The notes below the pieces were generated by a model. The model saw only the letters and a program-made list of their open reading frames with translations, was not told the origin of the DNA and did not search any database. A DNA stretch of 43,383 nt from a virus: the IMG/VR virus record IMGVR_UViG_3300030620_000002, positions 1 to 43,383 of that record; one strand, 5' to 3'. The position numbers were made by a program, and so were the translations under genes. Positions 23,283 to 41,958 of this stretch are shown here, piece after piece; within the stretch, counting starts at the first letter, position 1; every line of letters starts with the position of its first letter.

Positions 23283-23840
23283 ATGGCTGCGGAAGGCATC
23301 GAGATCCAGAGGGTCGTGAACGCACTGCTGCGCTGGCGCGGCAACGTGAAGGCGGCCGCGGACGAGCTGGGGATCCGGCGGAAGAGCCTCTATGAGCGCA
23401 TCCAGCGCGCCGGCATCGACCTCCAGGCGATCCGCCATGCGTCCCCCTCCGTGAGCGAGTTCCGGGGCATGCCCCGTATGCCCCCCGTGCCCCGGGACAT
23501 GTCCCGTGAGGGGGTGACCCGTAGTGTCCCGAAATCTGCTAGTGCCCCGTACCAAAGCACGCCTCAGGGGCCTACCGTGACGGGCATGCAGCAGGCCACC
23601 GCGGAACCACCCTTCGCACCGTCGCACAGCAAGCCGCGACTCCCGCGCGTCCTGCCCCGCGACCAGGAGCGGCTCCGCGCCGCCAAGATCGAGATCATCG
23701 CCCGCTTCCGCATCGAGACCGACGAGCAGGCGATCCACGACCAGTTCATGGCGGAGGCGTTCGACGGCTGGCTCGAGGACAAGCTGGCGGTCGAGGGTGC
23801 CCGTCCGGCGGAGCGGCCGCAGCGGAAGAAGGCCCCGTGA
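23283..23840 (+). CDS. Fis-type HTH (HTH_8) regulator, first gene of the early operon (185 aa)
   Basis: VNALLRWRGNVKAAADELGIRRKSLYERIQRAGIDL is a Fis/NtrC-type HTH. Confidence 0.7.
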   Translation: MAAEGIEIQRVVNALLRWRGNVKAAADELGIRRKSLYERIQRAGIDLQAIRHASPSVSEFRGMPRMPPVPRDMSREGVTRSVPKSASAPYQSTPQGPTVTGMQQATAEPPFAPSHSKPRLPRVLPRDQERLRAAKIEIIARFRIETDEQAIHDQFMAEAFDGWLEDKLAVEGARPAERPQRKKAP

Positions 23841-24220
23841 CGAGCCTCCAGGCGCAGCGGGCCGAGGACAGGACCGGCGACCCGACGGGCGCGCCGCGCC
23901 GCCCCGCCGAGCTCCGGGCCCTGGCGCACGATCATCTCGTCGAGGCGCGCCGGTACGAGATGGAGGCGCAGGAGCTGTTCGCCGAAGCCGCGCGGCTGGA
24001 GAGTAGCCAGGCGCTCGAGGCTCGGCTCTCGCCCGACGATGCGGCGGCGTTCCTGCGCGTGAAGCGGGGGACGCTCAACGCCTGGCGCCGGAACGGGCGT
24101 GGGCCGCGCTACGTCATGGTGGGGACGAAGATCACCTACCTCCGGGCCGACCTGGAGAGCTGGCTCCAGAGCCGCCGGATCGGCAGCACGGCCGAGCGGC
24201 GCGACCTGGGGGCGCAGTGA
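23837..24220 (+). CDS. Excisionase/MerR-type HTH (HTH_17) protein
   Basis: LSPDDAAAFLRVKRGTLNAWRRNGRGPRYVMVGTKITYLRADLESWL matches the Xis/AlpA-type pattern. GTGA coupling to the upstream gene. Confidence 0.65.
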   Translation: MTSLQAQRAEDRTGDPTGAPRRPAELRALAHDHLVEARRYEMEAQELFAEAARLESSQALEARLSPDDAAAFLRVKRGTLNAWRRNGRGPRYVMVGTKITYLRADLESWLQSRRIGSTAERRDLGAQ

Positions 24221-26485: not shown

Positions 26486-26991
26486 TGGCGACCGAGGAGC
26501 TGCTCGAGAGCGAGGTCGTCTGGGGGTGGGCATCCCACGCCGAGAGCGAGGTCTGGTCCGGCGCCTATTCCCTCGAGGCGACCGTGGAGCGCGCGATCGA
26601 GGAGGCGCGCAGCACCGGTGCCTGGGACGTCTACATCGCCGCCGGACAGTACCCCTCCACGGGCGCTATCGCCGCGACGGCGATTCGCCTCGACGACGTG
26701 CTCGAGCGCATGGAAGAGGACGCCGCCGACCAGGGGATCTACGCCGCCGACGAGCTGCTGTTCGAGCCCTCACCGGCCGCCGCCGAGAAGCTGGAGGAGG
26801 CACTGCGGGCCTGGGGAGCAGACGCGGTGACGGCCTTCGACCGCTGGACTCGCACCGGTGAGCCCGTACGCATCGTGCTCGTGAGAGCGGACTGCGGCGA
26901 TTGCGGCGTCGGGGTCAAGGTCGACGAGGACGGGTGCTGCGCCCAATGCGGGCGTGACGCCGAGATCGTCGTGCCCGGGAGCAGCTCGTGA
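26485..26991 (+). CDS. Acidic protein with C-terminal zinc ribbon (168 aa)
   Basis: ATG 26485 overlaps the upstream TGA. The body is very Asp/Glu-rich. The C-terminus reads CGDCGVGVKVDEDGCCAQCG. Confidence 0.55.
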   Translation: MATEELLESEVVWGWASHAESEVWSGAYSLEATVERAIEEARSTGAWDVYIAAGQYPSTGAIAATAIRLDDVLERMEEDAADQGIYAADELLFEPSPAAAEKLEEALRAWGADAVTAFDRWTRTGEPVRIVLVRADCGDCGVGVKVDEDGCCAQCGRDAEIVVPGSSS

Positions 26992-27365
26992 AGCAGGCGG
27001 GGCTCGACTGGGACCTCGACCCGGCGGAGTGGACCGCCGCGGCGCCGCCGGCGCCTCGCGCGCCCGCGCCACCGCCCACGGAGACGGCCGTCCTCGACGA
27101 GCGCGGCCGCGTCCGGCTCGGGACCGTCCTCGAGGCGCTCCCCGGCACGGCGTACCCGTACACCGCGGCCTGTGGCGCGTGCGGCGCCCGGCAGTCTGGC
27201 TGGGCGTCGGTCTGGAGCGCCGAGATGTGGGTCCGGCACCACCGCCGGACGTGTGCGGGAGCCGAGCAAGCCATGGAGGGCCGGCCCGCTGGCGCCGCCG
27301 CCAGCGCTCCTCCAACCAGAGTCCCCGCCGGCCGGGGCGGGGAACCCCCGCGGGGGGGAGCATGA
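26988..27365 (+). CDS. Duplicated-family protein A1 (125 aa, CGACG motif)
   Basis: The N-terminal ~85 aa is nearly identical to 28570..28923 (DWDLDPAEWTAAAPPAPRAPAPPPTETAVLDERGR...YPYTAACGACG..QSGW.SVWSAEMWVRHHR). Confidence 0.6.
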   Translation: MKQAGLDWDLDPAEWTAAAPPAPRAPAPPPTETAVLDERGRVRLGTVLEALPGTAYPYTAACGACGARQSGWASVWSAEMWVRHHRRTCAGAEQAMEGRPAGAAASAPPTRVPAGRGGEPPRGGA

Positions 27366-27508
27366 CCTGGCGCGCCTTGCAGATCCTGTCGGCGTCGGGG
27401 CTCGCGTTCGTCGCGGCCCTGTGCCTCTCGTGGTGGATCCGCGACGAGCGGCGCCGTCCTGAGCCGGTGGGTCGGGTGCGGCCGGGGTGGCGGCCCCGGC
27501 GGCCGTGA
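27362..27508 (+). CDS. Duplicated-family small membrane protein B1 (48 aa)
   Basis: MTWRALQILSASGLAFVAALCLSWWIRDERRRPEPVGRVRPGWRPRRP. Paralog at 28415..28573. ATGA coupling. Confidence 0.5.
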   Translation: MTWRALQILSASGLAFVAALCLSWWIRDERRRPEPVGRVRPGWRPRRP

Positions 27509-27744
27509 AGCAGTCCGCCCTCGACCTCGGCCACCACCCGGGCGCAGCGCGGGGGCGAGGAGCCGCCGCCGCTCGCGCCCTGCCCCGATTGCAGCCAGGA
27601 GCTCCAGTCTTTCGGCGCCGGCGGAGGCCTCGATCTCGACGCGACCGGAGGTGGCCCCGGGCAGTAGACCGGCCCGCCGACTTCGAACCCAGTAGGAGGA
27701 ACAGGATGCCTGCGCCAGCGGCCCTCCTGGGAGAGCAGCCATGA
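27505..27744 (+). pseudogene. Recombination scar: A-type start, then the tail of the Cys-rich gene, repeat R2 and a 12-codon mini-ORF
   Basis: GTGAAGCAGTCCGCCCTCGAC mimics the A1/A2 starts. 27626-27719 is a copy of 25621-25709. 27718-27744 is a copy of 26151-26177. The reading frame is Arg-rich and looks non-functional. Confidence 0.45.
27626..27719 (+). repeat. Gene-boundary repeat R2 (copy of 25621-25709)
   Basis: Direct comparison by eye, with small indels. Confidence 0.85.
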
Positions 27745-28418
27745 CGGCGCGCGCGCGGACCCCGGAGGACCTGGAGACGCCGGTGATCGCCGCCGCCCTG
27801 CGCCGCCTCGTCGGCGCCCACCACACCTACGGCGGCCTCTGGTCCGTCCCCCACCCCTCGACAGGGGGCGGCGTGTGGGCGGTCGGGGCGGACGGCTGGT
27901 GCTTCGCAGCTCTGCGCGTCTGGGGCCCGCCGCCCTTCCCGCTGGAGCCGGAGTCGACTCGTGGGGCTCGGACCAGGGCGGTGGAGCGGTGGCTCTCCCA
28001 GGATCAGGAGGGGCATCCCGTCGACGGCGAGGCCCTCCTGGCCTGGTGCGGCGCCGTCTGCGAGGACTGCGAGGACACCCGGGTGCAGCCGTGTGAATGC
28101 GAGGGCACCGGGGAGATCACGTGTACCTGCTCCAGGTGCGACGACGAGCACGAGACGACGTGCCCGGACTGCGCCGGCGACGGGCGCGCGACCTGCGACT
28201 CTTGCAGCCACCCCCTCTACGGGGTCCTGCTGGGTCGGCTGTGGGACCGGCACCTGATCCGCCTGGTCCTGACGGCGATCGGGACGGATGGGCTCAGCGT
28301 CTCCCACGACCGCGAGTTCGACGCCCTGGTCCTGCGAGCCCCCGGCCGGCTGGGTGTGGTGATGGGGATGCGGGGCGAGATCGAAGCGCACTACCCGCGG
28401 TTCGAGGCCCTCCCATGA
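27741..28418 (+). CDS. Protein with a DnaJ-type CxxCxGxG-like Cys cluster (225 aa)
   Basis: CEDCEDTRVQPCECEGTGEITCTCSRCDDEHETTCPDCAGDGRATCDSC. Confidence 0.6.
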   Translation: MTARARTPEDLETPVIAAALRRLVGAHHTYGGLWSVPHPSTGGGVWAVGADGWCFAALRVWGPPPFPLEPESTRGARTRAVERWLSQDQEGHPVDGEALLAWCGAVCEDCEDTRVQPCECEGTGEITCTCSRCDDEHETTCPDCAGDGRATCDSCSHPLYGVLLGRLWDRHLIRLVLTAIGTDGLSVSHDREFDALVLRAPGRLGVVMGMRGEIEAHYPRFEALP

Positions 28419-28573
28419 CCTGGCGCGCCCTCCAGATCCTGTCAGCGTCGGGTCTCGCGCTCTTCGGGGCCGTGTGTCTCGCGCGCTGGATCCGGGACGT
28501 GAAGAGCCGACCGGAGCCGGTGGAGCGGGTGCGGGCCGGGTGGCGGCCGCGGCGGCTGCTGGAGCGGCGGTGA
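28415..28573 (+). CDS. Duplicated-family small membrane protein B2 (52 aa)
   Basis: MTWRALQILSASGLALFGAVCLARWIRDVKSRPEPVERVRAGWRPRR. ATGA coupling. Confidence 0.5.
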   Translation: MTWRALQILSASGLALFGAVCLARWIRDVKSRPEPVERVRAGWRPRRLLERR

Positions 28574-28923
28574 AGCAAGGCGCCCTCGACTGGGACCTCG
28601 ACCCGGCGGAGTGGACCGCCGCGGCGCCGCCGGCGCCTCGCGCGCCCGCACCACCGCCCACGGAGACGGCCGTCCTCGACGAGCGCGGCCGCGCCCGGAT
28701 CGGCACCGTCATCGAGGCGCTCCCCGGCACGGCGTACCCGTACACCGCGGCCTGCGGCGCGTGCGGCACCCGCCAGTCCGGCTGGTCGTCGGTCTGGAGC
28801 GCCGAGATGTGGGTCCGCCACCACCGGACGGCCGAGGATCTCGACCTGGTGGAGGCGCTGCGCGCGCTCGCGGCCGAGGATCGCCTCGACGCCTTCGAGG
28901 CGGACGCTGGGGGCGCCCGGTGA
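28570..28923 (+). CDS. Duplicated-family protein A2 (117 aa)
   Basis: GTG 28570 overlaps the B2 stop. About 250 nt is roughly 93% identical to A1, followed by a different C-terminus. Confidence 0.6.
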   Translation: MKQGALDWDLDPAEWTAAAPPAPRAPAPPPTETAVLDERGRARIGTVIEALPGTAYPYTAACGACGTRQSGWSSVWSAEMWVRHHRTAEDLDLVEALRALAAEDRLDAFEADAGGAR

Positions 28924-29252
28924 CGCCGCTCACCGAGGCCGGCGGGCGCCGGCGTTGCCGCTACTGCGGCCGGCCGATCCGCTTCGCGTTGCTCCCGGAC
29001 GGTCGCCAGGTCCCGTACGACCCGGAGCCCAACCCGGCGGGCAGCCTGGTCTTCGAGCGCGCGCGGACGGAGTCGGGCGACGAGCTGGCGCTCCGCCGGG
29101 CCGTGTTCGCCGCGCTCGGCGAGCGGGCGGGGGAGACGCGCTACCTGCCCCACCGGAGCAGCTGCCCGGCTCGAGCCGTGCGCCGGCGGCGCCGCGGCGG
29201 GCGGCACTCGCCTGGCCGCCGCCAGCGCCATCTCTTCGGGGGGACCCCTTGA
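28920..29252 (+). CDS. Zinc-ribbon-like hypothetical protein (110 aa)
   Basis: GTG 28920 is coupled to the upstream stop. CRYCGRPIRFALLPDGRQVPYDPEP ... SSCPA. Confidence 0.5.
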   Translation: MTPLTEAGGRRRCRYCGRPIRFALLPDGRQVPYDPEPNPAGSLVFERARTESGDELALRRAVFAALGERAGETRYLPHRSSCPARAVRRRRRGGRHSPGRRQRHLFGGTP

Positions 29253-29409: not shown

Positions 29410-29634
29410 GTGATCGGCGAGATCTTCGACGCGGCGGCCGCGCGGCTGATCTGGGGGATGTGGGGGGTGTCGCTGATCGCCGGCGCCGCCGGCGGAGCAG
29501 TCCTCCTCGGCGCCGGCTGGGTCTGGGGCTACCTCTCGCGCTGCCGGGACGAGCGCGAGGCGCAGCTGAGCGACGAGTGGCGTGCGGAGCGCGCCCGCCA
29601 GGAGCAGCAAGGGGCCAAGGAGGACTCCGCGTGA
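29410..29634 (+). CDS. Small membrane protein (74 aa)
   Basis: GTG 29410. Hydrophobic LIWGMWGVSLIAGAAGGAVLLGAGWVWGYL followed by a charged tail. Confidence 0.45.
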   Translation: MIGEIFDAAAARLIWGMWGVSLIAGAAGGAVLLGAGWVWGYLSRCRDEREAQLSDEWRAERARQEQQGAKEDSA

Positions 29635-30266
29635 GCCTCTACGACCGCTACCACGAGCTGCACGGGCTGCAGGAGGCGCTCCGCGAGAGCGAGAGGCCGG
29701 AGAAGGTCCGCGTCTGCATCGAGCACCGGGTGACGTGCTCGGTCCGGGACGACGCGGTGGTGTGCCCCGTGGGGTCCCACGAGCTCGAGGAGCGTGAGTG
29801 GGCGGTCGCGAACGCCCCGGGGCCAGGCACTACGACGGCGGCACCGCCGCCGCCACACAGGAGGGAGGCGCCGATGGCGCAGCACGGCGGGAAGAGACAG
29901 TCGTCGGTCGTCGACCGGAGATTCTTCCGGGACGCCGCCGGCAACAGGCTGTACCTGCGGCTGAAACAGCAGGAGGACGGGGCCATGGTGATCGCCGTGC
30001 AGCACCTCCCCAAGGGGGGCGGCAACCGGAGCGGGGTGCTGGGGCACTTCCGGCCCGGCGACGACCCCGCCCTGGCGGATCGCCAGGCCAAGGCGCGCTT
30101 CATCGAGCTCATCGGGCAGACGCTCCAGAAAGGCTGGACCGCGTCGGCCGGGAGGCGCCCCGGGGGCCTACAGGAGATTCCCGAGGCTCAGGGCGCCGCG
30201 GCCGCCGCCGCGGCGCCGAAGCGCAGCACGGCACGCCCGCGGCCGTACGCCGGGAGGGGACGTTGA
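29631..30266 (+). CDS. Hypothetical protein (211 aa), C-terminal half weakly WGR-like
   Basis: GTGA coupling. RRFFRDAAGNRLYLRLKQQEDGAMVIAVQHLPKGGGNRSGVLGHF...AKARFIELIGQTLQKGW. Confidence 0.5.
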   Translation: MSLYDRYHELHGLQEALRESERPEKVRVCIEHRVTCSVRDDAVVCPVGSHELEEREWAVANAPGPGTTTAAPPPPHRREAPMAQHGGKRQSSVVDRRFFRDAAGNRLYLRLKQQEDGAMVIAVQHLPKGGGNRSGVLGHFRPGDDPALADRQAKARFIELIGQTLQKGWTASAGRRPGGLQEIPEAQGAAAAAAAPKRSTARPRPYAGRGR

Positions 30267-31465
30267 CCGCCGCGGCGCCGGCGCTGCAGGACCTGAAGCT
30301 CGACGTCCTCGTCGAGTCACCGTCCAACCCCCGCAAGACCTGGGGCGACCTGGCCGAGCTCGTGGCGAGCATCCGCGAGAAGGGCGTGCTCCAGCCGATC
30401 CTGGCCCGGCCGCTCCCGGGCCCCCGCGAGAAGGGGTCCGCCACCCACGAGGTGGTCTTCGGGCACCGGCGTCTCCGCGCCGCGCGGAAAGCGGGGTTAG
30501 CCACGATCCCCGCGATCGTCCGGTCCCTCGACGACCTCGCCGCCCTCGAGGCACAGGTGATCGAGAACGGCCAACGAGAGGACATCCATCCCCTCGAGGA
30601 GGCCCTCGGGATGGCGAAGAAGCGGGCCGAGGCGGAAGCGGCCGGCCGCCAGGTCCTCACGGGCAAGGCGGCGAAGGCGGCGATCGAGAGCCGCGTCAAG
30701 TTCGTGAAGCCCGGGGACCACTGCTGGGAGGACCCGAAGGGGCAGCGCACATGGGGGAAGCTGCTCGGGAAGAAAGGCCTCGAGGAACACGGGGTGCTCG
30801 CGGAGGGGCCCGACGGCGACCTGGTGGAGCTCGTCCCCGCGGAGGCGGCGCGCGCCGCCCTCAAGGATGTGCTGAAGGCATCGGGTCTCTCGCCGGCGCG
30901 CTCGAGGGCGTCGAGCCCCTCGTCGATCGCGGCGTCCCAGCGGCGCGAGCAGGCGAAGCGTGACCTGGAGCGGCGTGTTCGCGGGCGGATCCTCGACGAG
31001 ATCGTTCCCAGGGTGAAGTCACTCGACCGCGAGGACATGGTGCTCGTCCTCGTCTCGATGTTCCGCCGGCTCTGGCACGACGACTACAAGGTGCCGCTCT
31101 CGAAGCGCTGGGGCCTCCGAACGGAGACCGAGAAGGGCACGAAGGCCTTCGCCGCCCGCCTCGACCTTGACGCGGCTCTCGATCGCCGCCTTCGCCGCCT
31201 TGCCCGTGAGGACTTGGTCGACCGGCCCGAGGCCGCGCCCCGCCTCCCGGCCGTGCTCGCAGCGCGCATCCTGGAGGTCGCCCTCTTCACCGAGACACAC
31301 CCGCTGGCCCACCACACGCCGAAGGCTGACGCGCTGCTCGAGGCGGCCCAGCGCTACGGTATCGACGCTGCGGCGATCCGCCGCGAGGAGACCGCCGCCG
31401 CGGCCCGGCCGAAGAAGAAGGCCCCGAAGAAGACGCGCGGGAAGAAGGCGGCTCGCCGTGGGTGA
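30263..31465 (+). CDS. ParB/Srx-like N-terminal domain protein (400 aa)
   Basis: TTG 30263 is coupled to the upstream stop. SPSNPRKTWGDLAELVASIREKGVLQPILARP...VVFGHRRLRAARKAGLATIPAIV matches ParB boxes. Basic C-terminal tail. Confidence 0.8.
   Translation: MTAAAPALQDLKLDVLVESPSNPRKTWGDLAELVASIREKGVLQPILARPLPGPREKGSATHEVVFGHRRLRAARKAGLATIPAIVRSLDDLAALEAQVIENGQREDIHPLEEALGMAKKRAEAEAAGRQVLTGKAAKAAIESRVKFVKPGDHCWEDPKGQRTWGKLLGKKGLEEHGVLAEGPDGDLVELVPAEAARAALKDVLKASGLSPARSRASSPSSIAASQRREQAKRDLERRVRGRILDEIVPRVKSLDREDMVLVLVSMFRRLWHDDYKVPLSKRWGLRTETEKGTKAFAARLDLDAALDRRLRRLAREDLVDRPEAAPRLPAVLAARILEVALFTETHPLAHHTPKADALLEAAQRYGIDAAAIRREETAAAARPKKKAPKKTRGKKAARRG
30653..30700. repeat. Left arm of a 48-bp perfect inverted repeat inside the ParB-like gene
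   Basis: gtcctcacgggcaaggcggcgaaggcggcgatcgagagccgcgtcaag is the exact reverse complement of 31166-31213. Confidence 0.95.
31166..31213. repeat. Right arm of the 48-bp perfect inverted repeat
   Basis: cttgacgcggctctcgatcgccgccttcgccgccttgcccgtgaggac. The spacer 30701-31165 is 465 bp (155 codons). Confidence 0.95.
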
Positions 31466-32006
31466 GGACCGGCTGCAGCTGCGCGCCCTCAGCCTCACTC
31501 AGCCGTGGGCCTCGCTGGTCGCCCTCGGCGCCAAGCGCATCGAGACGCGTTCCTGGGCCACCGCCTACCGAGGCCCCCTCGCGATCCACGCGTCGTGGCA
31601 CTTCCCGCCACACGCGCGGCGGCTGTGCGAGGAGGAGCCCTTCCTCCGCCTCCTCGAGGAGGCGGGCCTCGACGAGGACACCCTCCCTCGCCGGGCCGTG
31701 CTCGGCGTCTGTCGACTGCTGGGCTGCCATCTCATCACCGAGCTCGAGGCGCAGCGCATTGCCCACCTCGGGGCCGGTGAAGAGCTCCACCTGGGCGTCC
31801 GCTTCGGCGCCGCCGTCGTCACCCGCGTCGAGGCCGCGCTCGGCGACTTCAGCGCACGCCGCTACGCCTGGACGCTGAGCGAGCCGCGGCTCTTCAGCCG
31901 GCCGTCACCGGCTTCCGGCCGTCTGGGCGTCTGGCGGTGGACTGCGCCGGTCAACTTCCGCGATCTCGAGCCCGAGGTCGCGGCCCAACTCCAGGAGGGG
32001 CGGTGA
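31458..32006 (+). CDS. ASCH (PUA-like) domain protein
   Basis: LRALSLTQPWASLVALGAKRIETRSWATAYRGPLAIHAS is the ASCH signature. GTG 31458 overlaps the end of the ParB-like gene. Confidence 0.75.
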   Translation: MGEDRLQLRALSLTQPWASLVALGAKRIETRSWATAYRGPLAIHASWHFPPHARRLCEEEPFLRLLEEAGLDEDTLPRRAVLGVCRLLGCHLITELEAQRIAHLGAGEELHLGVRFGAAVVTRVEAALGDFSARRYAWTLSEPRLFSRPSPASGRLGVWRWTAPVNFRDLEPEVAAQLQEGR

Positions 32007-32266
32007 GCGAGAGGAAGGCGCCGCAGCAGCGCGCGCTGGAAATCGTCCGATACGAGGTCGAGCGGAGCGGGGGCACACCCGGGGAGGTCACCCTCTCGAC
32101 GCGGCTGTGCGACCTGGGGCTCGACTCGCTCGCTCTACTCGAGCTCCAGATCTCCCTCGAGGACGAGTTCGACGTCGAGCTCCTCGAGGAGATGTTAGCC
32201 GGAGGGACGGTCGGCGAGCTGATCATCCAGGCCGTGAGGCGAGAGCAGGGCCAAGAGGGCCAGTGA
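32003..32266 (+). CDS. Acyl/peptidyl carrier protein-like (PP-binding) protein (87 aa)
   Basis: GTGA coupling. TRLCDLGLDSLALLELQISLEDEFDVELLEEMLAGGTVGELI carries the DSL phosphopantetheine-attachment motif in its usual helix-II context. Confidence 0.75.
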   Translation: MSERKAPQQRALEIVRYEVERSGGTPGEVTLSTRLCDLGLDSLALLELQISLEDEFDVELLEEMLAGGTVGELIIQAVRREQGQEGQ

Positions 32267-32300
32267 CCGAGCCGCATCACCAAACGAAGGCCAACTGAGC

Positions 32301-32831
32301 GTGCCCGCCTGGCTGCAGTCGATCGTCGACTTCTTCGGCCGCTTCCGCCTCTGGTACGTCGTCATGCCCTGGGAGCGCGCAGTGCGCGTGCGCCTCGGCA
32401 ACCGCGTCGTCAAGCGCGGCCCCGGCTTCCACTGGAAGCTGCCTCTCCTCGACCGCGTGTTCATCCAGAACGTCCGCCTACACGTGGTCAGCACCTGCAG
32501 CCAGGTCCTCGAGGACGGCGATGGACGAACCGTGGCCGTCGTCGCGTGCATCGGCTTCAGCATCGACGACATCTTGCGCGTGTACACCAGCGTGCAGCAT
32601 CTCGACGAGGCGCTCTACTCCTGGGCCTCCGCCGCCCTGGCGGATCACATCACGAAGGGTCGTGCGGCCGCCGAAGAGGCGGTGGCGCGGAGTCTCGAAG
32701 AGCAGGCGACCAGGTGGGGGATACGCATCGAGTTCTTTCGCTTGACCGACTACACACGGGTCCGTGCGTTCCGGCTGCTGCAAGGAGACCGCTGGTCGCG
32801 CTCAGAAATCGACCTGGGGAAGGGCCTATGA
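32301..32831 (+). CDS. SPFH/Band-7 (stomatin/prohibitin-like) domain protein (176 aa)
   Basis: VVMPWERAVRVRLGNRVVKRGPGFHWKLPLLDRVFIQNVRLHVVSTCSQVLEDGDGRTVAVVACIGFSIDD follows the SPFH pattern (P..E.AV....G.....GPG.H...P..D.V....R). Confidence 0.75.
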   Translation: MPAWLQSIVDFFGRFRLWYVVMPWERAVRVRLGNRVVKRGPGFHWKLPLLDRVFIQNVRLHVVSTCSQVLEDGDGRTVAVVACIGFSIDDILRVYTSVQHLDEALYSWASAALADHITKGRAAAEEAVARSLEEQATRWGIRIEFFRLTDYTRVRAFRLLQGDRWSRSEIDLGKGL

Positions 32832-33829
32832 CGGAGCCCCACCACCAGCTGCGCGACGTCCTCCGCCGCGGCCGCGCCCGCCTGCCGGCGGAGCTGCAGC
32901 CGGCTGGGGCGCTCCTCGTCCTGCGCGAGCTGACCGAGTGGCGCGACCTGGACCCGTCAAGCCGGCAGCTCGAGGAGGCCACGGGCCAGCACCGGAGCCG
33001 GATCCGCCGCTACCTCGACCAGGCCGTGGCCTGCGGGCTCCTCGTCGTCCTCCAGGAGGCATCGGCGGGCGGTCGAGGGCGCCGCGGCCGCGGCCGCCGC
33101 TACGGACTCGGTCCGCTCGCTCTCCAGGCCCTGCCAGAAAGCGGGGACGCCAGGTCCCCTGTTTCTGGCGCTGCCCCGCCTGAAAGTGGGGACGCCACGT
33201 CCCCTGTTTCCGAGAAAGCGGGGACCAAAGTGGGGACCAAAGTGGGGACCAAAGTGGGGACGCCACGTCCCCCTCACCTACACCTACACCGTACGGATAC
33301 ACCCCCCCCTACCCCCCCTCGGGACGAGGGGGGGCCAGTCGAGCTCCGAATCGCAGCCAGGCGACGACGGCCACGGCACCGCGACGAGCGGGATGCCCTC
33401 GAGGCGTACGGTCAGGAGCTCGGGCTCACCCTCGACACCGAGCTGCGGGACCGGATCCGCGACGCGCTGCGCGACGGCTGGGCGGTCGATCGGATCCGGT
33501 CGAGCCTCGAGCGCCGCGCCGGGCGGCCGCGGTCGCCGCCGGCGCCGGAGCGGCCGCTACCGACGCGCGAGGCGCTGCGGCTGTGGGAGGGCGCCGTCTG
33601 CTGGCTCGAGTCCCGAGTCCCGCGCCGGTCGTGGCTCACCTGGCTCCGAGCCGGCACCTGGGGCTACCGCCTCGACGGCGAGCGCCTGGTCGTCGGCGTC
33701 GCCACCCCCGCACACCAGCGCTGGCTCGCCGGCCACGTCGAGTGGCGGCCGCTCTACCTCGAGGCGCTCGCCGCCGGCGGCCACGCGGGGCTCGAGGTCC
33801 TCTTCGAGACGGGACTCCCAGGAGGTTGA
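32828..33829 (+). CDS. Replication initiator candidate: N-terminal wHTH, iteron-encoding linker, DnaA-N-like C-terminus
   Basis: ATGA coupling. The N-terminus has LEEATGQHRSRIRRYLDQAVACGLL. The C-terminus WEGAVCWLESRVPRRSWLTWLRAGTWGYRLDGERLVVGVATPAHQRWLAGHVEWRPLYLEAL resembles the DnaA domain I pattern. Confidence 0.6.
   Translation: MTEPHHQLRDVLRRGRARLPAELQPAGALLVLRELTEWRDLDPSSRQLEEATGQHRSRIRRYLDQAVACGLLVVLQEASAGGRGRRGRGRRYGLGPLALQALPESGDARSPVSGAAPPESGDATSPVSEKAGTKVGTKVGTKVGTPRPPHLHLHRTDTPPPTPPRDEGGPVELRIAARRRRPRHRDERDALEAYGQELGLTLDTELRDRIRDALRDGWAVDRIRSSLERRAGRPRSPPAPERPLPTREALRLWEGAVCWLESRVPRRSWLTWLRAGTWGYRLDGERLVVGVATPAHQRWLAGHVEWRPLYLEALAAGGHAGLEVLFETGLPGG
33135..33277. repeat. Candidate origin of replication: six AAAG(C/T)GGGGAC iterons plus three GGGGACGCCA(C/G)GTCCCC palindromes
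   Basis: Iterons start at 33138, 33183, 33215, 33227, 33239 and 33251; the last four are in exact 12-bp phase. Inverted GTCCCC partners are at 33154, 33199 and 33267. Confidence 0.6.
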
Positions 33830-33831
33830 CG

Positions 33832-35538
33832 ATGCTGAAGGTGGGCGCCGGGTTCCAGCTCGCGATCGAGCACGTCGAGGACGTCGTCGCGATCATCGGC
33901 CGCCGCGGCCGCGGGAAGACGTCGACCGCGGCCGTGCTCGTCGAGGAGCTCCACCGCGCGCGGCACCGGTTCTGCGTCGCGGATCCAGTCGGGGTCTGGC
34001 ACGGGCTCAAGTCCTCGAGGGACGGGAAGTCCCCCGGCCTCCCGGCGATCGTGATGGGCGGCGATCACGGGGACGTCCCCCTCGAGGCGACGGCGGGGCG
34101 GGTGATCGCCGACTTCGTAGCGACCTCGGACAGCTCCGTCGTCCTCGACTTCCTGCACTTCCGCAAGGCCCACATGAGCCGCTTCATGACCGACTTCCTC
34201 GAGGAGCTCTACACCAAGAGCCGGCGGGCGCTCCACCTGGTGCTTGACGAGGCCGACAAGTTCATCCCGCAGCGCGTGGACGGCAGCAACGCGCAGCTGG
34301 TCGGCGCCGCCGAGGACGTCGTCAAGATGGGCCGGGCCCGGGGGTTGCTGCCCATCCTCATCACGCAGCGGCCAGCCTCGCTCAACAAGAACGCGCTCTC
34401 GCAGGCGGGCCTGCTGATCGCGCATGGCCTGACCTCGCCCCACGACCGCAAGGCCGTCGACCTCTGGGTGAGGGAGAACGCCACCGAGGAGCAGCGCAAG
34501 GCCTTCCACGCCTCGCTCGCCGGGCTCGACCGGGGCGTCGCGTGGTTCTGGCAGCCGGAGGCCGAGATCTTCCGCCAGGTGTCCGTGCGGGAGCGCGCCA
34601 CGTTCGACTCGTCGTCGACGCCGAAGGCCGGGGGCCATCGCGCCGCGCCGAAGGTCGTCGCGAAGGTCGACCTGGAGCAGCTCGAGAAGCGGATCCGGTC
34701 GACCATCGAGGAGCGGAAGGCGAACGACCCGAAGGAGCTGCGGCGCAGGATCGGCGAGCTCGAGCGCCAACTGGCGAAGCCGCCCACGCTGGCGCCGGCG
34801 ACGGTGGAGCGGGTCGAGGTCCCCATCCTGGAGGCGCCCACGGTGAAGCGCCTCGAGGCCGCGCTCGCGAAGGTGGACCGGCAGGCCGAGCGCCTCACCG
34901 CCGACGTCCAGCGCCTGGTCGACCTACAGGCTGACGTCAAGGCCCGCCAGGCGGAGATCCGGTCAGCCCTGATCACGCGCTCGGAGCGCGCACGACCGGC
35001 CGCGGCGCCGCCGCGCGTCTCGACGACGCCAGCGCCGCCTCGCCCTGCCCCGCGGCCGGCGCAGGGATCCGTCGGGGGCGGCCTGCAGCGGATCCTCGTC
35101 GCCCTCGCGCAGCGGCCGCAGGGACTGACGATCAAGCAGGTCGCGCTACGCGCGGGGCTGTCCAGCCGGAGCGGCACCTTCTCGACGTACGTCAGCCGCT
35201 GCCGCCAGCAGGGCTGGATCGCGGGCGGCAGCAAGGAGGTCCTCCGGATCACGGATGAGGGCCTCGAGGCGCAGGGGCCCTTCGAGCCCCTGCCCACGGG
35301 TGCCGGGCTGCTCGCCTACTGGTCGAGCCAACTCGGGGGTGGCGCTGCCAGGCTCCTCGAGGCGGTCGCTGCCGCCTACCCTGCCGAGCTGAGCAACGAC
35401 GAGGCCGCGGCCGCCGCGGGCCTCTCTGGGCGCAGCGGCACCTTCTCGACGTACGTGAGCCGCCTCCGCGGCCTGCAGCTGATCGACGGCGCGCGCGGGA
35501 GCGGCCGCCTGCGCGCGTCCGATGAGCTCTTCGAGTGA
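33832..35538 (+). CDS. HerA/FtsK-like P-loop ATPase (DUF87-type) with two C-terminal wHTH-like repeats (568 aa)
   Basis: Walker A is IIGRRGRGKTS and Walker B is HLVLDEADKF. LPILITQRPASLNKNALSQAGLLIAHGLTS also fits the family. A coiled-coil lies in the middle. The repeat GLS.RSGTFSTYVSR.R occurs twice at the C-terminus. Confidence 0.75.
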   Translation: MLKVGAGFQLAIEHVEDVVAIIGRRGRGKTSTAAVLVEELHRARHRFCVADPVGVWHGLKSSRDGKSPGLPAIVMGGDHGDVPLEATAGRVIADFVATSDSSVVLDFLHFRKAHMSRFMTDFLEELYTKSRRALHLVLDEADKFIPQRVDGSNAQLVGAAEDVVKMGRARGLLPILITQRPASLNKNALSQAGLLIAHGLTSPHDRKAVDLWVRENATEEQRKAFHASLAGLDRGVAWFWQPEAEIFRQVSVRERATFDSSSTPKAGGHRAAPKVVAKVDLEQLEKRIRSTIEERKANDPKELRRRIGELERQLAKPPTLAPATVERVEVPILEAPTVKRLEAALAKVDRQAERLTADVQRLVDLQADVKARQAEIRSALITRSERARPAAAPPRVSTTPAPPRPAPRPAQGSVGGGLQRILVALAQRPQGLTIKQVALRAGLSSRSGTFSTYVSRCRQQGWIAGGSKEVLRITDEGLEAQGPFEPLPTGAGLLAYWSSQLGGGAARLLEAVAAAYPAELSNDEAAAAAGLSGRSGTFSTYVSRLRGLQLIDGARGSGRLRASDELFE

Positions 35539-35927
35539 GCGAGCGCCGTACGATCACGATCCCGGGTCTGCCGGTCGGAAAGCCGCGGCAGACCCGGCGC
35601 GACCGCTGGGCCAGGCGGCCGGCGGTGCTCCGATACCGGGCCTGGGCCGACACCGCCCGAGCCGCGGTGCTCGCCGCCCTCGGCGCCCACGCCCTCGACC
35701 AGGTCCCGCTCGAGGTCCACGTCCTCGCCTGGTTCCCCCTGCCCCAACGCCGCCGCCCGGGCGTCAGGCCTGGCTGGCCTTATCGGCAGAAGCCCGACGC
35801 CGACAACGTCATCAAGGCGGTCTGTGACGCCCTCTGGGCGCGGGACGAGCTCATCGCGGGATCCTCGTGCTGGTGCTCCTGGGACGACGGCCGCGGACCT
35901 CGACTGGAGGTCTGGTGGAGGGACTGA
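35535..35927 (+). CDS. rusA: RusA-family Holliday junction resolvase
   Basis: TIPGLPVGKPRQ...RQKPDADNVIKAVCDALW matches the RusA catalytic motif (KPDxDNxxKxxxDAL). Confidence 0.85.
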   Translation: MSERRTITIPGLPVGKPRQTRRDRWARRPAVLRYRAWADTARAAVLAALGAHALDQVPLEVHVLAWFPLPQRRRPGVRPGWPYRQKPDADNVIKAVCDALWARDELIAGSSCWCSWDDGRGPRLEVWWRD

Positions 35928-36121
35928 CGCCGGAGCAGCAGGAGATCCTCGAGCGCCTGCCGGCGGCGGTCGTCGAGCTGCTCGTCGAGGAGTTCCGTGC
36001 CCTGGGCCCGTCCAGGTCGGGCGAGATCCGCCTGGTCCTCGCAGTCGTGCGAGGCGCCGTCAGGGCGGAGCGCTCGTACATCGAGCCGCCGCGCCGGTGG
36101 GCCCGCCACCCGCGCGACTGA
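35915..36121 (+). CDS. Hypothetical small protein (68 aa)
   Basis: GTG 35915 lies in the frame of track ORF 35867..36121. It is the last gene before a 136-bp intergenic gap. Confidence 0.4.
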   Translation: MEGLTPEQQEILERLPAAVVELLVEEFRALGPSRSGEIRLVLAVVRGAVRAERSYIEPPRRWARHPRD

Positions 36122-36139
36122 CCCGGCCGCCGGAATGGC

Positions 36140-36168
36140 TTGACCGCGCGGCTGTCAGCCCGTACCCT
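36140..36168 (+). promoter_or_regulatory. Candidate promoter TTGACC-17-TACCCT upstream of the endolysin gene
   Basis: cTTGACCgcgcggctgtcagcccgTACCCTctg lies in the only sizeable intergenic gap of the + strand block. Confidence 0.4.
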
Positions 36169-36257
36169 CTGACCTGAGCCGCGTGGCTCCGGCGAGGTAG
36201 CCCGCGACGCAAGCGGGCCCGCCGGGGGGGATTGCCCGGTGCCGAGGGCCCTCCGAC

Positions 36258-36899
36258 ATGCCTCTCACGAGGCGAGTCGGAGGATCCTTGCCGGCAGACG
36301 CAGACCGGGCCACCGAGCCGCCCCTCTCGACATTCGACCGGGCCTTCACCCTCATCGTCCTCGCCGAGGGCGGCGCCGCCTTCAGCGACCACCCCCACGA
36401 CCCCGGCGGGCCCACGAAGTGGGGCGTCTCCTGGCGCGCGGTCCGCCTGCGCGATGCGGACCGCGACGGCCGCTTCGACTTCGACCTCGACTTCGACGGC
36501 GACGTTGATGTCGAGGACATCAGGCTGATCGAGCGCCACCACGCCGAGCAGCTCTTCGCGGAGGACTACTGGGCCCCCGCCGGCTGCGAGCGGTGGCCAG
36601 CGCCGGTGGCGATCGCCGTCGCCGACGCCGCGTACAACCAGGGCCCGCGGACCGCCGTCGCGATGCTCCAGCGCGCGGTCGGCCCCGGAGCGGGGCGGGA
36701 CGACGGGATCCCCGGACCCCGCACCCGCGCCGCCGTCGAGGCGCTCGAGGCCGCCGGGCGCGTCCGCCAGCTCCTCGCCGACTTCGCGACCCACCGAGCG
36801 GACCGCTACCGGCAGCACCCGCGCGTCGACACCTTCTTTCGCGGCTGGATCGCGCGGCTCATCGAGCTCGACAGGGCTCTGGCTGGAGGTTGCCAGTGA
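36258..36899 (+). CDS. Endolysin, glycoside hydrolase family 108 plus PG_binding_3-like C-terminus
   Basis: LAEGGAAFSDHPHDPGGPTKWGVS matches the GH108 motif (EGGYxxxxxDPGGxTxxGI). ADAAYNQGPRTAVAMLQRAV...DDGIPGPRTRAAV...FFRGWIARL fits the peptidoglycan-binding part. Confidence 0.85.
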   Translation: MPLTRRVGGSLPADADRATEPPLSTFDRAFTLIVLAEGGAAFSDHPHDPGGPTKWGVSWRAVRLRDADRDGRFDFDLDFDGDVDVEDIRLIERHHAEQLFAEDYWAPAGCERWPAPVAIAVADAAYNQGPRTAVAMLQRAVGPGAGRDDGIPGPRTRAAVEALEAAGRVRQLLADFATHRADRYRQHPRVDTFFRGWIARLIELDRALAGGCQ

Positions 36900-37981
36900 A
36901 GCGACGACGCTGGACGGGTCTGTGCGTAGTGCTCGTGGCGATGGTGCCCGGGCTGGTGATGGCGCACGGCTGCGCGAGCTTCCCGATCCAGCTCGAGCGC
37001 GAGGACTGGCCCGTGCGGGACGACGGGACCCCGTACGCGAGCTGTCAGCTCGGTGCCAACGTGCCGGAGGACATGCCGCGGGTGTCGTGCGACTGCGCGA
37101 CCGAGGGCCCGGTGGTCGACTTCGTCGGGACCTGGGAGATCCGCGAGTGTCCCGCGCCGCCACCTCCACCGCCTCCACCGCCGGAGCCCGACCCCGAGCC
37201 CGATCCTGACCCGACGCCTCCTCCGCCCCCTCCGCCGGCAGGCACGTGTCCGCCCATCACGGCCTTCCGTTGCTTCGACGGCGACTCAACGGCGCTCGCC
37301 GGCGTCGAGGTCTCGGCTGCCGAGCGCCGCGTCATCGCCTCAAGGCCGGGCTACCTGATCGAGGTGCACGAGCGAGGGCAGCACCTCCGGGCCAAGATCC
37401 GGACCCCGGACCCCGGCGCCGAGCCCGACCTGCGCCGCTGGACGGAGGACGTAGCCGCCGAGCTGCGTCGCGCCGGCTACTGCGCCTACAGCGGCGATCC
37501 AGGCGGCAGCTCGCCCGACGAGATCCTGATCGTCGTGGACGACCCGGAGGGCCTCGTCGACGCCGAGCAATGGGACCTCGCGAAGTGCGGCGCGGTCGAC
37601 CCCGACAAGCGCTATTGCGTTGGGAGCGATCTCGAGCACCAGCCGTTCGACTGCGTGCTCCGGGACTCGGGTCCCGACCTGGGATCCGGTGGCCCGGGCG
37701 ACCCCGGGCCCGAAGACGAGCCGGAGGGCTACTGCACCGTCAGGGGGCACGGCAACGCGGACGGGCCGCTGCGGTTCCCGACCATGCTCGCCGCGTGCCA
37801 GTTCTCGCTCGATTGGGCGAGCGACGCCGGGCACACGACGCGCCACACGAGCGGCGGCGAGACGTGGTTCTACGACGAGGGCCGGGGCTGGTATCGCCGC
37901 GCGACGTGCGAGCGGTACGACTCGCCGGGTGGGCGTCGGCTCAGCGGGCCCGAGTGGTTCGGCGTCGAGTGCTTCCCGTGA
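36896..37981 (+). CDS. Secreted Cys-rich lipoprotein candidate with a poly-Pro/Asp-Pro linker (361 aa)
   Basis: GTGA coupling to the endolysin gene. Signal/lipobox-like VKRRRWTGLCVVLVAMVPGLVMAHGCAS. Linker PAPPPPPPPPPEPDPEPDPDPTPPPPPPPAG. Many Cys residues. Confidence 0.6.
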   Translation: MKRRRWTGLCVVLVAMVPGLVMAHGCASFPIQLEREDWPVRDDGTPYASCQLGANVPEDMPRVSCDCATEGPVVDFVGTWEIRECPAPPPPPPPPPEPDPEPDPDPTPPPPPPPAGTCPPITAFRCFDGDSTALAGVEVSAAERRVIASRPGYLIEVHERGQHLRAKIRTPDPGAEPDLRRWTEDVAAELRRAGYCAYSGDPGGSSPDEILIVVDDPEGLVDAEQWDLAKCGAVDPDKRYCVGSDLEHQPFDCVLRDSGPDLGSGGPGDPGPEDEPEGYCTVRGHGNADGPLRFPTMLAACQFSLDWASDAGHTTRHTSGGETWFYDEGRGWYRRATCERYDSPGGRRLSGPEWFGVECFP

Positions 37982-40937: not shown

Positions 40938-41389
40938 GGACGCCCCCAGGGCCCCGCTCTGCGCTGAACGTCGGCGATCGGAGCGGCGACAACGAGGTTC
41001 TCGGCTGGACCCGGCGAGAGCTAACGATCCCGCGGGCGATCGTCGATGCCTCGGAGCTGGCGGCCGCCCTCGTTCTCGACCTGGTAGAGGCCAGGGTGCC
41101 GCAAGTCGGGACAGCACTCGACGAGGTCGCGGTCCGCCTCGGTCGTGCCGCCTCACGAGCGTTGCAGCGGCTGGTGGCCGATGAGCGGCGAGCCGCGCGG
41201 CGCTGGGGCAAGACGAAGCGGAGGCAGGGGTCCCGACGTCGCGGCCGAGCGGCCCCGGCGGGGGCACCCCCCCCGGTGGCCTGGGTCCTCCCACGGGCCC
41301 GGGCCGAACGGGTTGCCCCCCCCGCGGATATTTTTCAGTCTCCGGCCCCGCCCGGGGGGCATTGGGCATTCAGGTGGGCGGGGCAGTAG
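40934..41389 (+). CDS. Hypothetical protein (151 aa); the 3' third overlaps the candidate cos region and may not be coding
   Basis: ATGA coupling. The first ~95 aa have ordinary composition; the tail is Arg/Pro-rich. Confidence 0.4.
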   Translation: MRTPPGPRSALNVGDRSGDNEVLGWTRRELTIPRAIVDASELAAALVLDLVEARVPQVGTALDEVAVRLGRAASRALQRLVADERRAARRWGKTKRRQGSRRRGRAAPAGAPPPVAWVLPRARAERVAPPADIFQSPAPPGGHWAFRWAGQ

Positions 41390-41400
41390 GCCGCCGGCCG
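41260..41400. other. Candidate cos/packaging-recognition region upstream of the Nu1-like gene
   Basis: Two C8 tracts (41267-41274 and 41316-41323) share a similar context. An isolated AT patch ggatatttttcagtctcc lies at 41326-41343, and a G6 tract at 41354-41359. The position corresponds to lambda cos. Confidence 0.3.
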
Positions 41401-41958
41401 GCCCCGGCGGCGTCTCCCTCCAGCTCGAGGCCGCGGCTCACCCGCGTGCAGTTGGCCGAGGCCCTCGGGTGCAACGTCCGGACGCTGGCGAAGTGGCTGG
41501 AGGAGGGGATGCCGGTCGTCCGCCGCGGCCGCGGCGGGCGCGCATCCCTCTACGACGAGGTCGAGGTGCGCGCCTGGCTCGAGGCGCGCGAAGAGGCGGC
41601 GCGCGGCGAGGAAGGCCCTCTGGTCCTCGAGCACGAGCGCGCCCTCAAGGAGCACTGGCTTGCGCTCGTCAACAAGCAGACGTACCTCACGCGTGAGCGC
41701 CAGCTGATCCCCGCGGCCGAGGTAGAGGTGGCCCTATCGCGTGAGCGCGACGCGGTGAGGGCGAAGGTCCTCTCGATCTACACGACGAGAGCGGACCGGC
41801 TGCACCGGATCGCCACTCTCGAGGGCGTCGCCGGAGTCGAGGAGGAACTCCGACAGATCGGGCACGAGGTCCTGCGCGAGCTCGCGGAGCCACCCGAGGA
41901 CGAGAAGCCCGGGGAGCCGCGCCGGCGCCGGCGCAGCAAACGCAAGGGTGACGGGTGA
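41362..41958 (+). CDS. terS: Terminase small subunit, lambda Nu1-like (wHTH N-terminus); the true start may be GTG 41446
   Basis: LTRVQLAEALGCNVRTLAKWLEEGMPVVRRGRGGRASLYDEVEVRAWL parallels lambda Nu1 (KKQLADIFGASIRTIQNWQEQGMPVLRGGGKGNEVLYDSAAVIKWY). GTGA coupling to terL. Confidence 0.8.
   Translation: MGIQVGGAVGRRPAPAASPSSSRPRLTRVQLAEALGCNVRTLAKWLEEGMPVVRRGRGGRASLYDEVEVRAWLEAREEAARGEEGPLVLEHERALKEHWLALVNKQTYLTRERQLIPAAEVEVALSRERDAVRAKVLSIYTTRADRLHRIATLEGVAGVEEELRQIGHEVLRELAEPPEDEKPGEPRRRRRSKRKGDG

Follow-up and report, generated by a model that had tools for sequence, protein, structure and literature searches.

Probable modular shuffling of ASCH, acyl carrier protein and SPFH genes in the early region of a temperate phage

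The viral DNA analysed here (IMG/VR record IMGVR_UViG_3300030620_000002, 43,383 nucleotides (nt), hereafter the window) carries three consecutive genes encoding an ASCH (PUA-like) protein, an acyl carrier protein (ACP) and a compact SPFH/Band-7 protein. The finding of a carrier protein next to a membrane scaffold raises the question whether the three genes, and ACP and SPFH in particular, form a coupled unit, as a sequence-only reading of the window had proposed, or are simply neighbours. The comparison with related phages makes the latter quite probable: ASCH, ACP and SPFH are best described as early-region accessory genes, each shuffled separately, which adjoin as a result of modular shuffling and have no joint function.

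The window is 43.4 kb long and its GC content is 70-75%, with 72% for the siphovirus genome. At this high GC most long open reading frames (ORFs) are spurious, and genes were therefore called by third-position GC. The ORFs encoding ASCH (182 amino acids, aa; 31458..32006), ACP (87 aa; 32003..32266) and SPFH (176 aa; 32301..32831) are all on the + strand, and have a coding composition, GC being 0.87-0.89 at third (GC3) versus 0.39-0.54 at second (GC2) codon positions. Frame, GC3/GC2 composition and domain matches concur in indicating that the three genes are real and lie where they had been placed. The GTG start of ASCH (31458) precedes the ParB-like stop (31465), with an overlap of 8 nt; ASCH (stop 32006) and ACP (GTG start 32003) overlap at the tetranucleotide GTGA; 34 nt separate the ACP stop (32266) from the SPFH GTG start (32301); and SPFH (stop 32831) overlaps at ATGA the next gene, which starts with ATG at 32828. 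Overlaps and gap had been described correctly, as was the location of the genes beside a ParB-like gene and replication genes. The three domain assignments are likewise supported by Pfam, PHROGs, AlphaFold2 and Foldseek, and PF00550, PF01145 and PF04266 all score above threshold, the last marginally. The coupling of the three genes has a different outcome.

Gene orders in sister phages and the origin of the ACP-SPFH gap

The clade to which the window belongs includes three independent relatives, i.e. the phage IMGVR_UViG_3300037515_000929 (loci L009/L113, also seen as L006; L113 in the following), L122 and L123. In the window the order is ASCH-ACP-SPFH. L113 features a 501-aa ParB, ASCH, a 91-aa ACP, a 200-aa GapR-like protein, a 304-aa AAA ATPase, a 293-aa protein, HerA and RusA, and lacks SPFH. 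In L123, ASCH, ACP, GapR and AAA are followed by an SPFH gene that starts 2 nt past the AAA stop codon, and is 98% identical to the window gene at the nucleotide level. In L122, ParB and ASCH are followed by an ORF encoding a 60-aa chimera, in which the N-terminal 39 residues of ACP are joined to the C-terminal 20 of AAA, and then by SPFH, 98-99% identical to that of the window. The serine of the ACP motif DSL, GapR and most of AAA are deleted in this phage.

ASCH, ACP and SPFH do not make up a functional trio, because relatives separate, lose or keep ACP and SPFH independently. Two genes lie between ACP and SPFH in L123; ACP is destroyed and SPFH kept in L122; ACP is found without SPFH in L113. 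These arrangements contradict the coupling proposed in the sequence-only reading. SPFH is kept in L122 despite the loss of the ACP active site, and its ratio of nonsynonymous to synonymous substitution rates (dN/dS) of 0.04 denotes strong constraint. L122 has also retained ASCH, even though its ACP is no longer functional. Taken as a whole, the gene orders show the adjacency of ACP and SPFH as apparently recent and accidental.

When aligned to L113 by blastn, the window is divided in three parts. The interval 31392-32251, which spans ASCH together with the 3' end of ParB and almost the whole of ACP, is conserved at 87%; the 1.58-kb block 32252-33830, corresponding to SPFH and to the gene for a 333-aa protein, has no counterpart; homology is found again, at 94%, in the interval 33831-37408. 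ASCH and ACP thus move as a single 0.86-kb block, in which the 4-nt overlap is conserved and which is found only within the clade. Close relatives of ACP (65-89% identity) are similarly confined to three sister-phage arrangements, on five loci.

The 34-nt spacer between ACP and SPFH (32267..32300, + strand) is very probably a deletion or recombination scar, because 13 of its nucleotides match the 3' end of the AAA gene of the sister phages. Residues 32286-32298 (GAAGGCCAACTGA) are identical to the 13 nt that close the IetA-like AAA gene, stop codon included. The same GAAGGCCAACTGA sequence is found at the end of AAA in L113, where SPFH is lacking, as well as in L122 and L123; in the two latter it precedes GC and the GTG of SPFH, just as it does in the window. 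In blastn, homology to L123 and L122 starts again at 32283-32285. The scar also supplies SPFH with a Shine-Dalgarno-like sequence, GAAGG. The possibility that the whole spacer is an AAA remnant was considered and discarded; only the last 13-17 nt are demonstrable, and the rest aligns no better than shuffled sequences (93 out of 500 reach the observed score).

In the ancestor, genes encoding GapR-like and IetA-like AAA proteins would have been located downstream of ACP, and in at least one lineage SPFH would have followed 2 nt past the AAA stop. In the lineage leading to the window, GapR and AAA would have been lost through a deletion of some 1.5 kb or through recombination. SPFH would have been brought in this way 34 nt past ACP, with the last 13 nt of AAA left in place as a scar. 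The chimera hosted by L122 shows a second and independent deletion in this region. The main value of the comparison is that a false lead is removed, as the association of a carrier protein and a membrane scaffold within a replication module would correspond to a deletion scar. Tight packing and overlaps of genes in phage early regions do not imply function.

Some additional features of the sister phages may be mentioned. The ACP-AAA chimera (L122:2419-2601) is in frame, and its junction coincides with a microhomology fitting the pattern PL(R/W)xDA. The 304-aa AAA ATPase, encoded at L113:6875-7786 and L123:1845-2756, matches the PADLOC IetA model (E 1e-53). Upstream of the sister AAA lies the gene for a 200-204-aa protein of the GapR_DNA-bd type; both genes are missing from the window, apart from the scar.

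Loci beyond the clade and alternative explanations

Outside the clade, 32 other SPFH loci were analysed, of which 23 from IMG/VR (GC 37-68%), 5 metagenomic and 4 genomic, found in metagenome-assembled genomes of Steroidobacteraceae, Pirellulaceae and Gammaproteobacteria and in one metagenomic chromosome. ACP was found near SPFH at none of the 32 loci (motif scan of 28; tblastn search of 27, among which the 4 genome loci, using the ACP of the window as query). Similarly, no ACP was identified within 3 kb of ASCH at 80 other viral loci from IMG/VR, by a strict motif scan accompanied by inspection of the next downstream gene in each; genes located downstream of ASCH are heterogeneous across these loci. 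Genes flanking SPFH also vary from locus to locus, and encode tail- or structure-like proteins, an XRE regulator, a YqaJ exonuclease, a ribbon-helix-helix (RHH) protein, portal or capsid. Co-occurrence in relatives, the test chosen beforehand for the coupling, gave four arrangements in four close relatives, and no ACP at 32 SPFH and 80 ASCH loci.

The search for other conserved pairs was equally negative. No partner common to all, such as NfeD, emerged when the genes around 29 SPFH loci were clustered, and ParB and ASCH are not a general pair, as ParB was found within 3 kb in only 2 out of 81 ASCH loci. One SPFH sub-clade shares a 483-aa protein with no Pfam match, a portal and an RHH gene.

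A few observations weigh against the view of three separately shuffled genes. The searches gave no more than three independent relatives of the clade, two being contigs shorter than 3 kb that end inside SPFH. The direction of the event, either the deletion or the gain of SPFH together with the 3' end of AAA, is inferred from a vestige of 13-17 nt. ASCH is found within 2 kb of SPFH in 2 out of 27 distant loci (L100 and L092), and the GapR-AAA pair is found beside SPFH in L123 and in the distant locus L119, i.e. in 2 of about 33 loci. These linkages are hints only, and may reflect a shared early-region location or a loose functional neighbourhood. Lastly, ASCH and ACP overlap by 4 nt and are co-inherited wherever ACP is intact, which leaves room for a function of these two genes.

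As to the organization of the loci just mentioned, an ASCH-family gene is located upstream of SPFH at L100:1010-2505 and at about L092:2055-4558, both distant loci of low identity. In L100 ASCH is followed by a gene for a 136-aa polypeptide without assigned function and then by SPFH, an order that mirrors that of the window with a non-ACP gene in the middle. GapR, AAA and SPFH are consecutive at L123:1231-2989, and at L119:6001-8637 the order is SPFH, a DUF4031-like gene, GapR and AAA. The L119 SPFH is 34% identical to that of the window, the L119 AAA is 42% identical to the L113 AAA, and the GapR-like gene is located about 0.4 kb past SPFH.

The alternative that survives best, though improbable, is that ASCH and ACP, perhaps with the ParB-CTPase-fold protein, are a real unit, in which ACP would be an acyl supplier or acceptor, or an acidic partner, for ASCH on nucleic acid, and to which SPFH would be unrelated. 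ASCH and ACP are part of one 0.86-kb mosaic block, and the GTGA overlap is kept in the window, L113 and L123. ParB always precedes ASCH in the clade, though the body of ParB differs, and a published survey has reported frequent fusions between ParB-CTPase folds and PUA-like domains, which involve DUF3850 in the case of phages and ASCH in that of archaea (PMC12704722). By analogy with these fusions, a ParB-ASCH pairing looks more plausible than an ASCH-SPFH pairing, though it is not general in the loci analysed. The rarity of both partners near other viral ASCH genes (ACP motif within 3 kb in none of 80, ParB in 2 of 81), the conservation of ASCH in L122 where the ACP serine is gone, and the faster evolution of ACP (nonsynonymous divergence, dN, 0.17 vs 0.04) all argue against such a unit. 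Co-inheritance is moreover observed among close relatives only, and may derive from recent common descent. A more specific version, most improbable, is that the translationally coupled ASCH-ACP block located after the ParB-CTPase-fold gene is a system for the acylation or deacylation of nucleic acids. The ACP, loaded by the host AcpS, would give up or accept the acyl group that ASCH, as an amidohydrolase of the YqfB type, handles on a base of the cytosine kind, in the nucleic acid of either phage or host. If true, this would be the first carrier protein tied to nucleobase modification.

It is quite improbable that SPFH is the partner of the IetA-like AAA and GapR-like proteins, in a manner akin to the association of FtsH with HflK/C, and that the window copy is an orphaned or decaying remnant. 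The 2-nt spacing between AAA and SPFH in L123, the L119 locus, in which an SPFH of 34% identity lies about 0.4 kb upstream of the GapR-like gene, followed by an AAA of 42% identity, and the match of AAA to the PADLOC IetA model (E 1e-53) are in line with this association. In contrast, AAA is present in only 2 of about 33 SPFH loci, and L113 has GapR and AAA without SPFH. The window SPFH is furthermore intact, near-identical to the L122 and L123 copies and subject to strong purifying selection (dN/dS 0.04), so that it is not in decay.

That ASCH, ACP and SPFH, or at least the two latter, are a co-evolved module, e.g. a carrier placed at an SPFH microdomain for lipid hijacking, factor modification or counter-defence, is hardly credible: it would agree with the tight one-strand packing with overlaps, the soundness of all three domain calls and the presence of ACP and SPFH in the same region of L123, but not with the two genes that separate them there, the deletion of the ACP active site in L122 next to an SPFH 98-99% identical, the lack of SPFH in L113, the origin of the gap from a deleted AAA gene, or the absence of ACP near all 32 other SPFH loci. 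Separate shuffling of the three genes is the explanation followed hereafter.

The three encoded proteins

ACP is a very acidic polypeptide (isoelectric point 4.3, net charge about -10). It matches PF00550 (PP-binding; 35.1 bits, E 1.6e-8, cutoff 20.8) and phrog_5934, annotated as acyl carrier protein. Ser42 (codon 32126-32128), within the tripeptide D41-S42-L43, is the predicted phosphopantetheine-attachment residue. In the AlphaFold2 model (mean predicted local distance difference test, pLDDT, 81.7) the protein folds as a four-helix bundle (helices at residues 7-21, 42-56, 63-67 and 70-82), and Ser42 sits at the start of helix II. The top 50 Foldseek matches in PDB consist exclusively of ACPs and of ACP-type domains or subunits within larger complexes, mostly AcpP and AcpM of type II fatty acid synthases, 27-38% identical. 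The nearest solved relatives are AcpM and the AcpP of B. subtilis and E. coli (about 23-29 bits). The protein falls below the NCBIfam equivalog cutoffs for AcpP/AcpM (TIGR00517, 28.6 vs 70.45 bits; NF040636, 27.6 vs 146).

The sequence-only reading had called this carrier protein an orphan, and this holds. A Pfam scan of 27 other proteins of the window, small ORFs of less than about 100 aa excluded, revealed no domain of phosphopantetheinyl transferases (PPTases; ACPS, Sfp), ketosynthases, adenylation or condensation enzymes. Nine structural and packaging proteins, compared to PHROGs only, match virion, integrase or terminase families, or nothing. Because no PPTase was found in the phage, a transferase of the host, of the AcpS type, would be needed to obtain holo-ACP. 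In ACP, a four-helix carrier of the AcpP type, the recognition helix (DSLALLELQISLEDEF) is intact. Because recognition helix and canonical geometry are kept, ACP is probably loaded by the host AcpS. In the host cell, the holo-ACP would join or titrate the enzymes of type II fatty-acid and lipid metabolism, or further proteins that bind AcpP.

ACP is seemingly dispensable, because one of the relatives, L122, has lost the serine. Its dN/dS is 0.40-0.47, and its dN (0.17, vs 0.04 for ASCH) is about four times that of its neighbours; fast evolution is as expected for a dispensable accessory gene. The search for additional clade members was unsuccessful. A profile search of genome contigs with the ACP alignment gave nothing; the same alignment detected in metagenome contigs ordinary cellular ACPs only, 35-50% identical through the motif EDEFDVE; the viral scan found L113 only, in addition to weak or partial matches.

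Phage homologs of ACP with unclear function are already on record (PMC5463345). PHROGs also includes acyl carrier protein families (5934 and 4154). The members of these families, ORF32 of Erythrobacter phage vB_EliS-R6L, and AcpP/AcpM are, as the window ACP, small and very acidic four-helix proteins, in which helix II begins with the DSL serine and the recognition helix is conserved. Orphan phage ACPs similarly lack a cognate synthase or PPTase in the phage genome. The window ACP is distinguishable from solved ACPs for its low identity (27-38%), and is far below the AcpP/AcpM equivalog cutoffs. The clade offers, with L122, a natural loss-of-serine variant for the comparison of orphan AcpP-like phage ACPs.

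The SPFH protein matches Band_7 (PF01145; 52.5 bits, E 8e-14, cutoff 23.6). The AlphaFold2 model (pLDDT 92.7) features a short N-terminal amphipathic helix followed by the SPFH1 and SPFH2 domains. The helix spans residues 3-13 and is followed by a beta strand; D10, R14 and R16 are all included in residues 4-24. Foldseek matches the model to stomatin, prohibitin, HflK/C and QmcA (TMq 0.65-0.73, probability 1.0), in alignments of 148-186 columns that cover about half of each target (240-420 residues; TMt 0.3-0.5). The cage-closing coiled coil (CC1/CC2) and the C-terminal cap are not in the model, and the protein ends about 25 residues past the last SPFH2 strand. Scores are under the HflK/HflC equivalog cutoffs (TIGR01933, 29.3 vs 159.4 bits; TIGR01932, 25.4 vs 134.4), and no PHROG family is matched. 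Across the clade, SPFH dN/dS is 0.04-0.28.

An exhaustive phmmer search assigned to the SPFH family 968 clusters at 50% identity with E <= 1e-3, and 283 with E <= 1e-10. Since nearly all of the best 150 clusters are 175-200 aa in length, the family is taken as a distinct and compact one. These proteins, of about 180 aa and without the coiled coil that builds cages, are mainly metagenomic, and mostly encoded on phage contigs. A word-index search retrieved six close SPFH homologs, versus one for ACP and two for ASCH. No full-length counterpart was found in 50,697 deposited phage genomes, which gave only partial matches (40-48% of the query) in Rhizobium phages. A single-protein IMG/VR scan gave nothing; a scan with a 10-sequence sub-alignment did yield loci. 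The best viral structural match (TM 0.80) is A0A6J7WFI0, a 173-aa protein of an uncultured Caudovirales phage annotated as HflK.

The window SPFH shares the SPFH1/SPFH2 alpha/beta core with HflK/HflC, QmcA, stomatin and prohibitin. It differs from them because about 100 residues shorter, and apparently devoid of a transmembrane helix or hairpin, with an amphipathic helix of only 11 residues. Neither the CC1/CC2 coiled coil nor the C-terminal cap, which close the cages of 16-24 subunits, is present, and no NfeD or FtsH partner gene is found nearby. Other viruses encode SPFH domains like that of the window with no assigned function, among which A0A6J7WFI0, prohibitin-family proteins of Rhizobium phages and Band-7 proteins of giant viruses. 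A0A6J7WFI0 has the same compact architecture, although sequence identity is only about 16%.

The N-terminal amphipathic helix and the SPFH1 face would hold the protein at the inner membrane. Joining or capping of host SPFH assemblies, of the HflK/C or QmcA type, is proposed as a best guess because the coiled coil needed for a closed cage is lacking. Capping would alter FtsH-type proteolysis, or membrane organization, in the lysis-lysogeny decision or in replication. That the whole compact family is a phage-specific poison subunit, or a cap, for host HflK/C-FtsH cages is unlikely. The family may nevertheless be a handle on the interference of phages with host SPFH-FtsH membrane complexes. It is the only item of some independent interest here. 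The window genes add an orphan phage ACP, a phage ASCH and a phage SPFH protein to kinds already known.

The match of the ASCH protein to PF04266 is marginal (21.9 bits vs a cutoff of 21.2), and that to phrog_3193 is sharper (E 7e-32). ASCH is a member of this family, which is very common in phages. Homologs are 1693, many already annotated as PF04266, and two are 83-85% identical to the window protein. The ASCH signature GxKxxExR is found as GAKRIETR at residues 24-31, and Q15, P16, K26, E29, T30, R31 and H44 are invariant, K26, E29 and R31 across 30 homologs. The dN/dS relative to L113 is 0.30. Signature and profile are shared with phage ASCH proteins of phrog_3193, the N4-acetylcytidine amidohydrolase YqfB and TRIP4 ASC-1. 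Members of phrog_3193 are common in phage early regions, where the window gene is also found. In comparison with the ASCH/PUA-like superfamily, the window protein is just above the Pfam threshold and has a clade-specific insertion at residues 95-125, approximately. It would be a PUA-like binder, or an amidohydrolase, of nucleic acids or modified bases. None of the ASCH, ACP and SPFH proteins has a match in PADLOC-DB at E <= 0.01.

Flanking genes and the phage genome

The gene preceding ASCH (30263..31465, + strand) encodes a protein of about 400 aa and is ParB-like, as previously described (ParB_N, 78 bits; TIGR00180, 102 bits; phrog_6218). The protein includes the N-terminal, CTPase-fold domain, and has no HTH_ParB match. 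In the relatives, the same ASCH gene is preceded by a different ParB, 501-504 aa long and carrying HTH_ParB. The alignment of the window gene to L113:3958-5463 is limited to the N-terminal domain (69% nucleotide identity) and to the last 70 nt or so; the ParB-like gene before ASCH has been replaced.

The gene following SPFH (32828..33829, + strand) encodes a 333-aa putative replication initiator or helix-turn-helix protein. It had been described as an initiator gene; the gene is there, but the likeness to initiators is weak (HTH_36, E 0.027; phrog_270, E 0.006). The C-terminal 70 residues or so resemble, by eye only, the DnaA N-terminal-like domain. In the sister phage the place of this gene is taken by one encoding an unrelated 293-aa protein. 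Further downstream (33826..35538, + strand) a 570-aa HerA/FtsK-like P-loop ATPase is encoded (HerA_C, AAA_22, DUF87), which is probably a replication or DNA-translocation ATPase. Its HerA matches in PADLOC and NCBIfam are under cutoff, and weak winged-helix matches (MarR/IclR-like) are found at the C-terminus. PHROGs labels this ATPase as terminase large subunit, though the real one (TerL) is encoded from 41955.

As a whole, the window looks like the complete genome of a temperate siphovirus. Genes recognised with PHROGs and Pfam encode portal (849-2408), capsid fused to protease (3025-5097), tape measure protein (9372-11720), integrase (19878-21068), helix-turn-helix regulators (23283-24220), GH108 endolysin (36288-36899), Nu1-like small terminase (41362-41958) and TerL (41955 to the window end). 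For the capsid-protease fusion, identity to the counterparts in Ralstonia, Rhodobacter and Pseudomonas phages does not exceed 44.5%. A Gram-negative host is suggested by the GH108 endolysin. No relative of the 29500-37000 DNA interval was found among the 50,697 deposited phages, the single match being 177 nt long, at 69%.

Very long overlapping ORFs are present on both strands at 26739-29252 and elsewhere, as the 830-aa minus-strand ORF at 26739-29231. They are artefacts of the 75% GC, and the real genes there are short + strand ORFs. A small early gene in this interval (28920-29252) encodes a protein with the Cys-rich motif CRYCGRPIRF and a sub-threshold match to DUF6083 (23.9 vs 27.1 bits), and is conserved in L113 (94% nucleotide identity).

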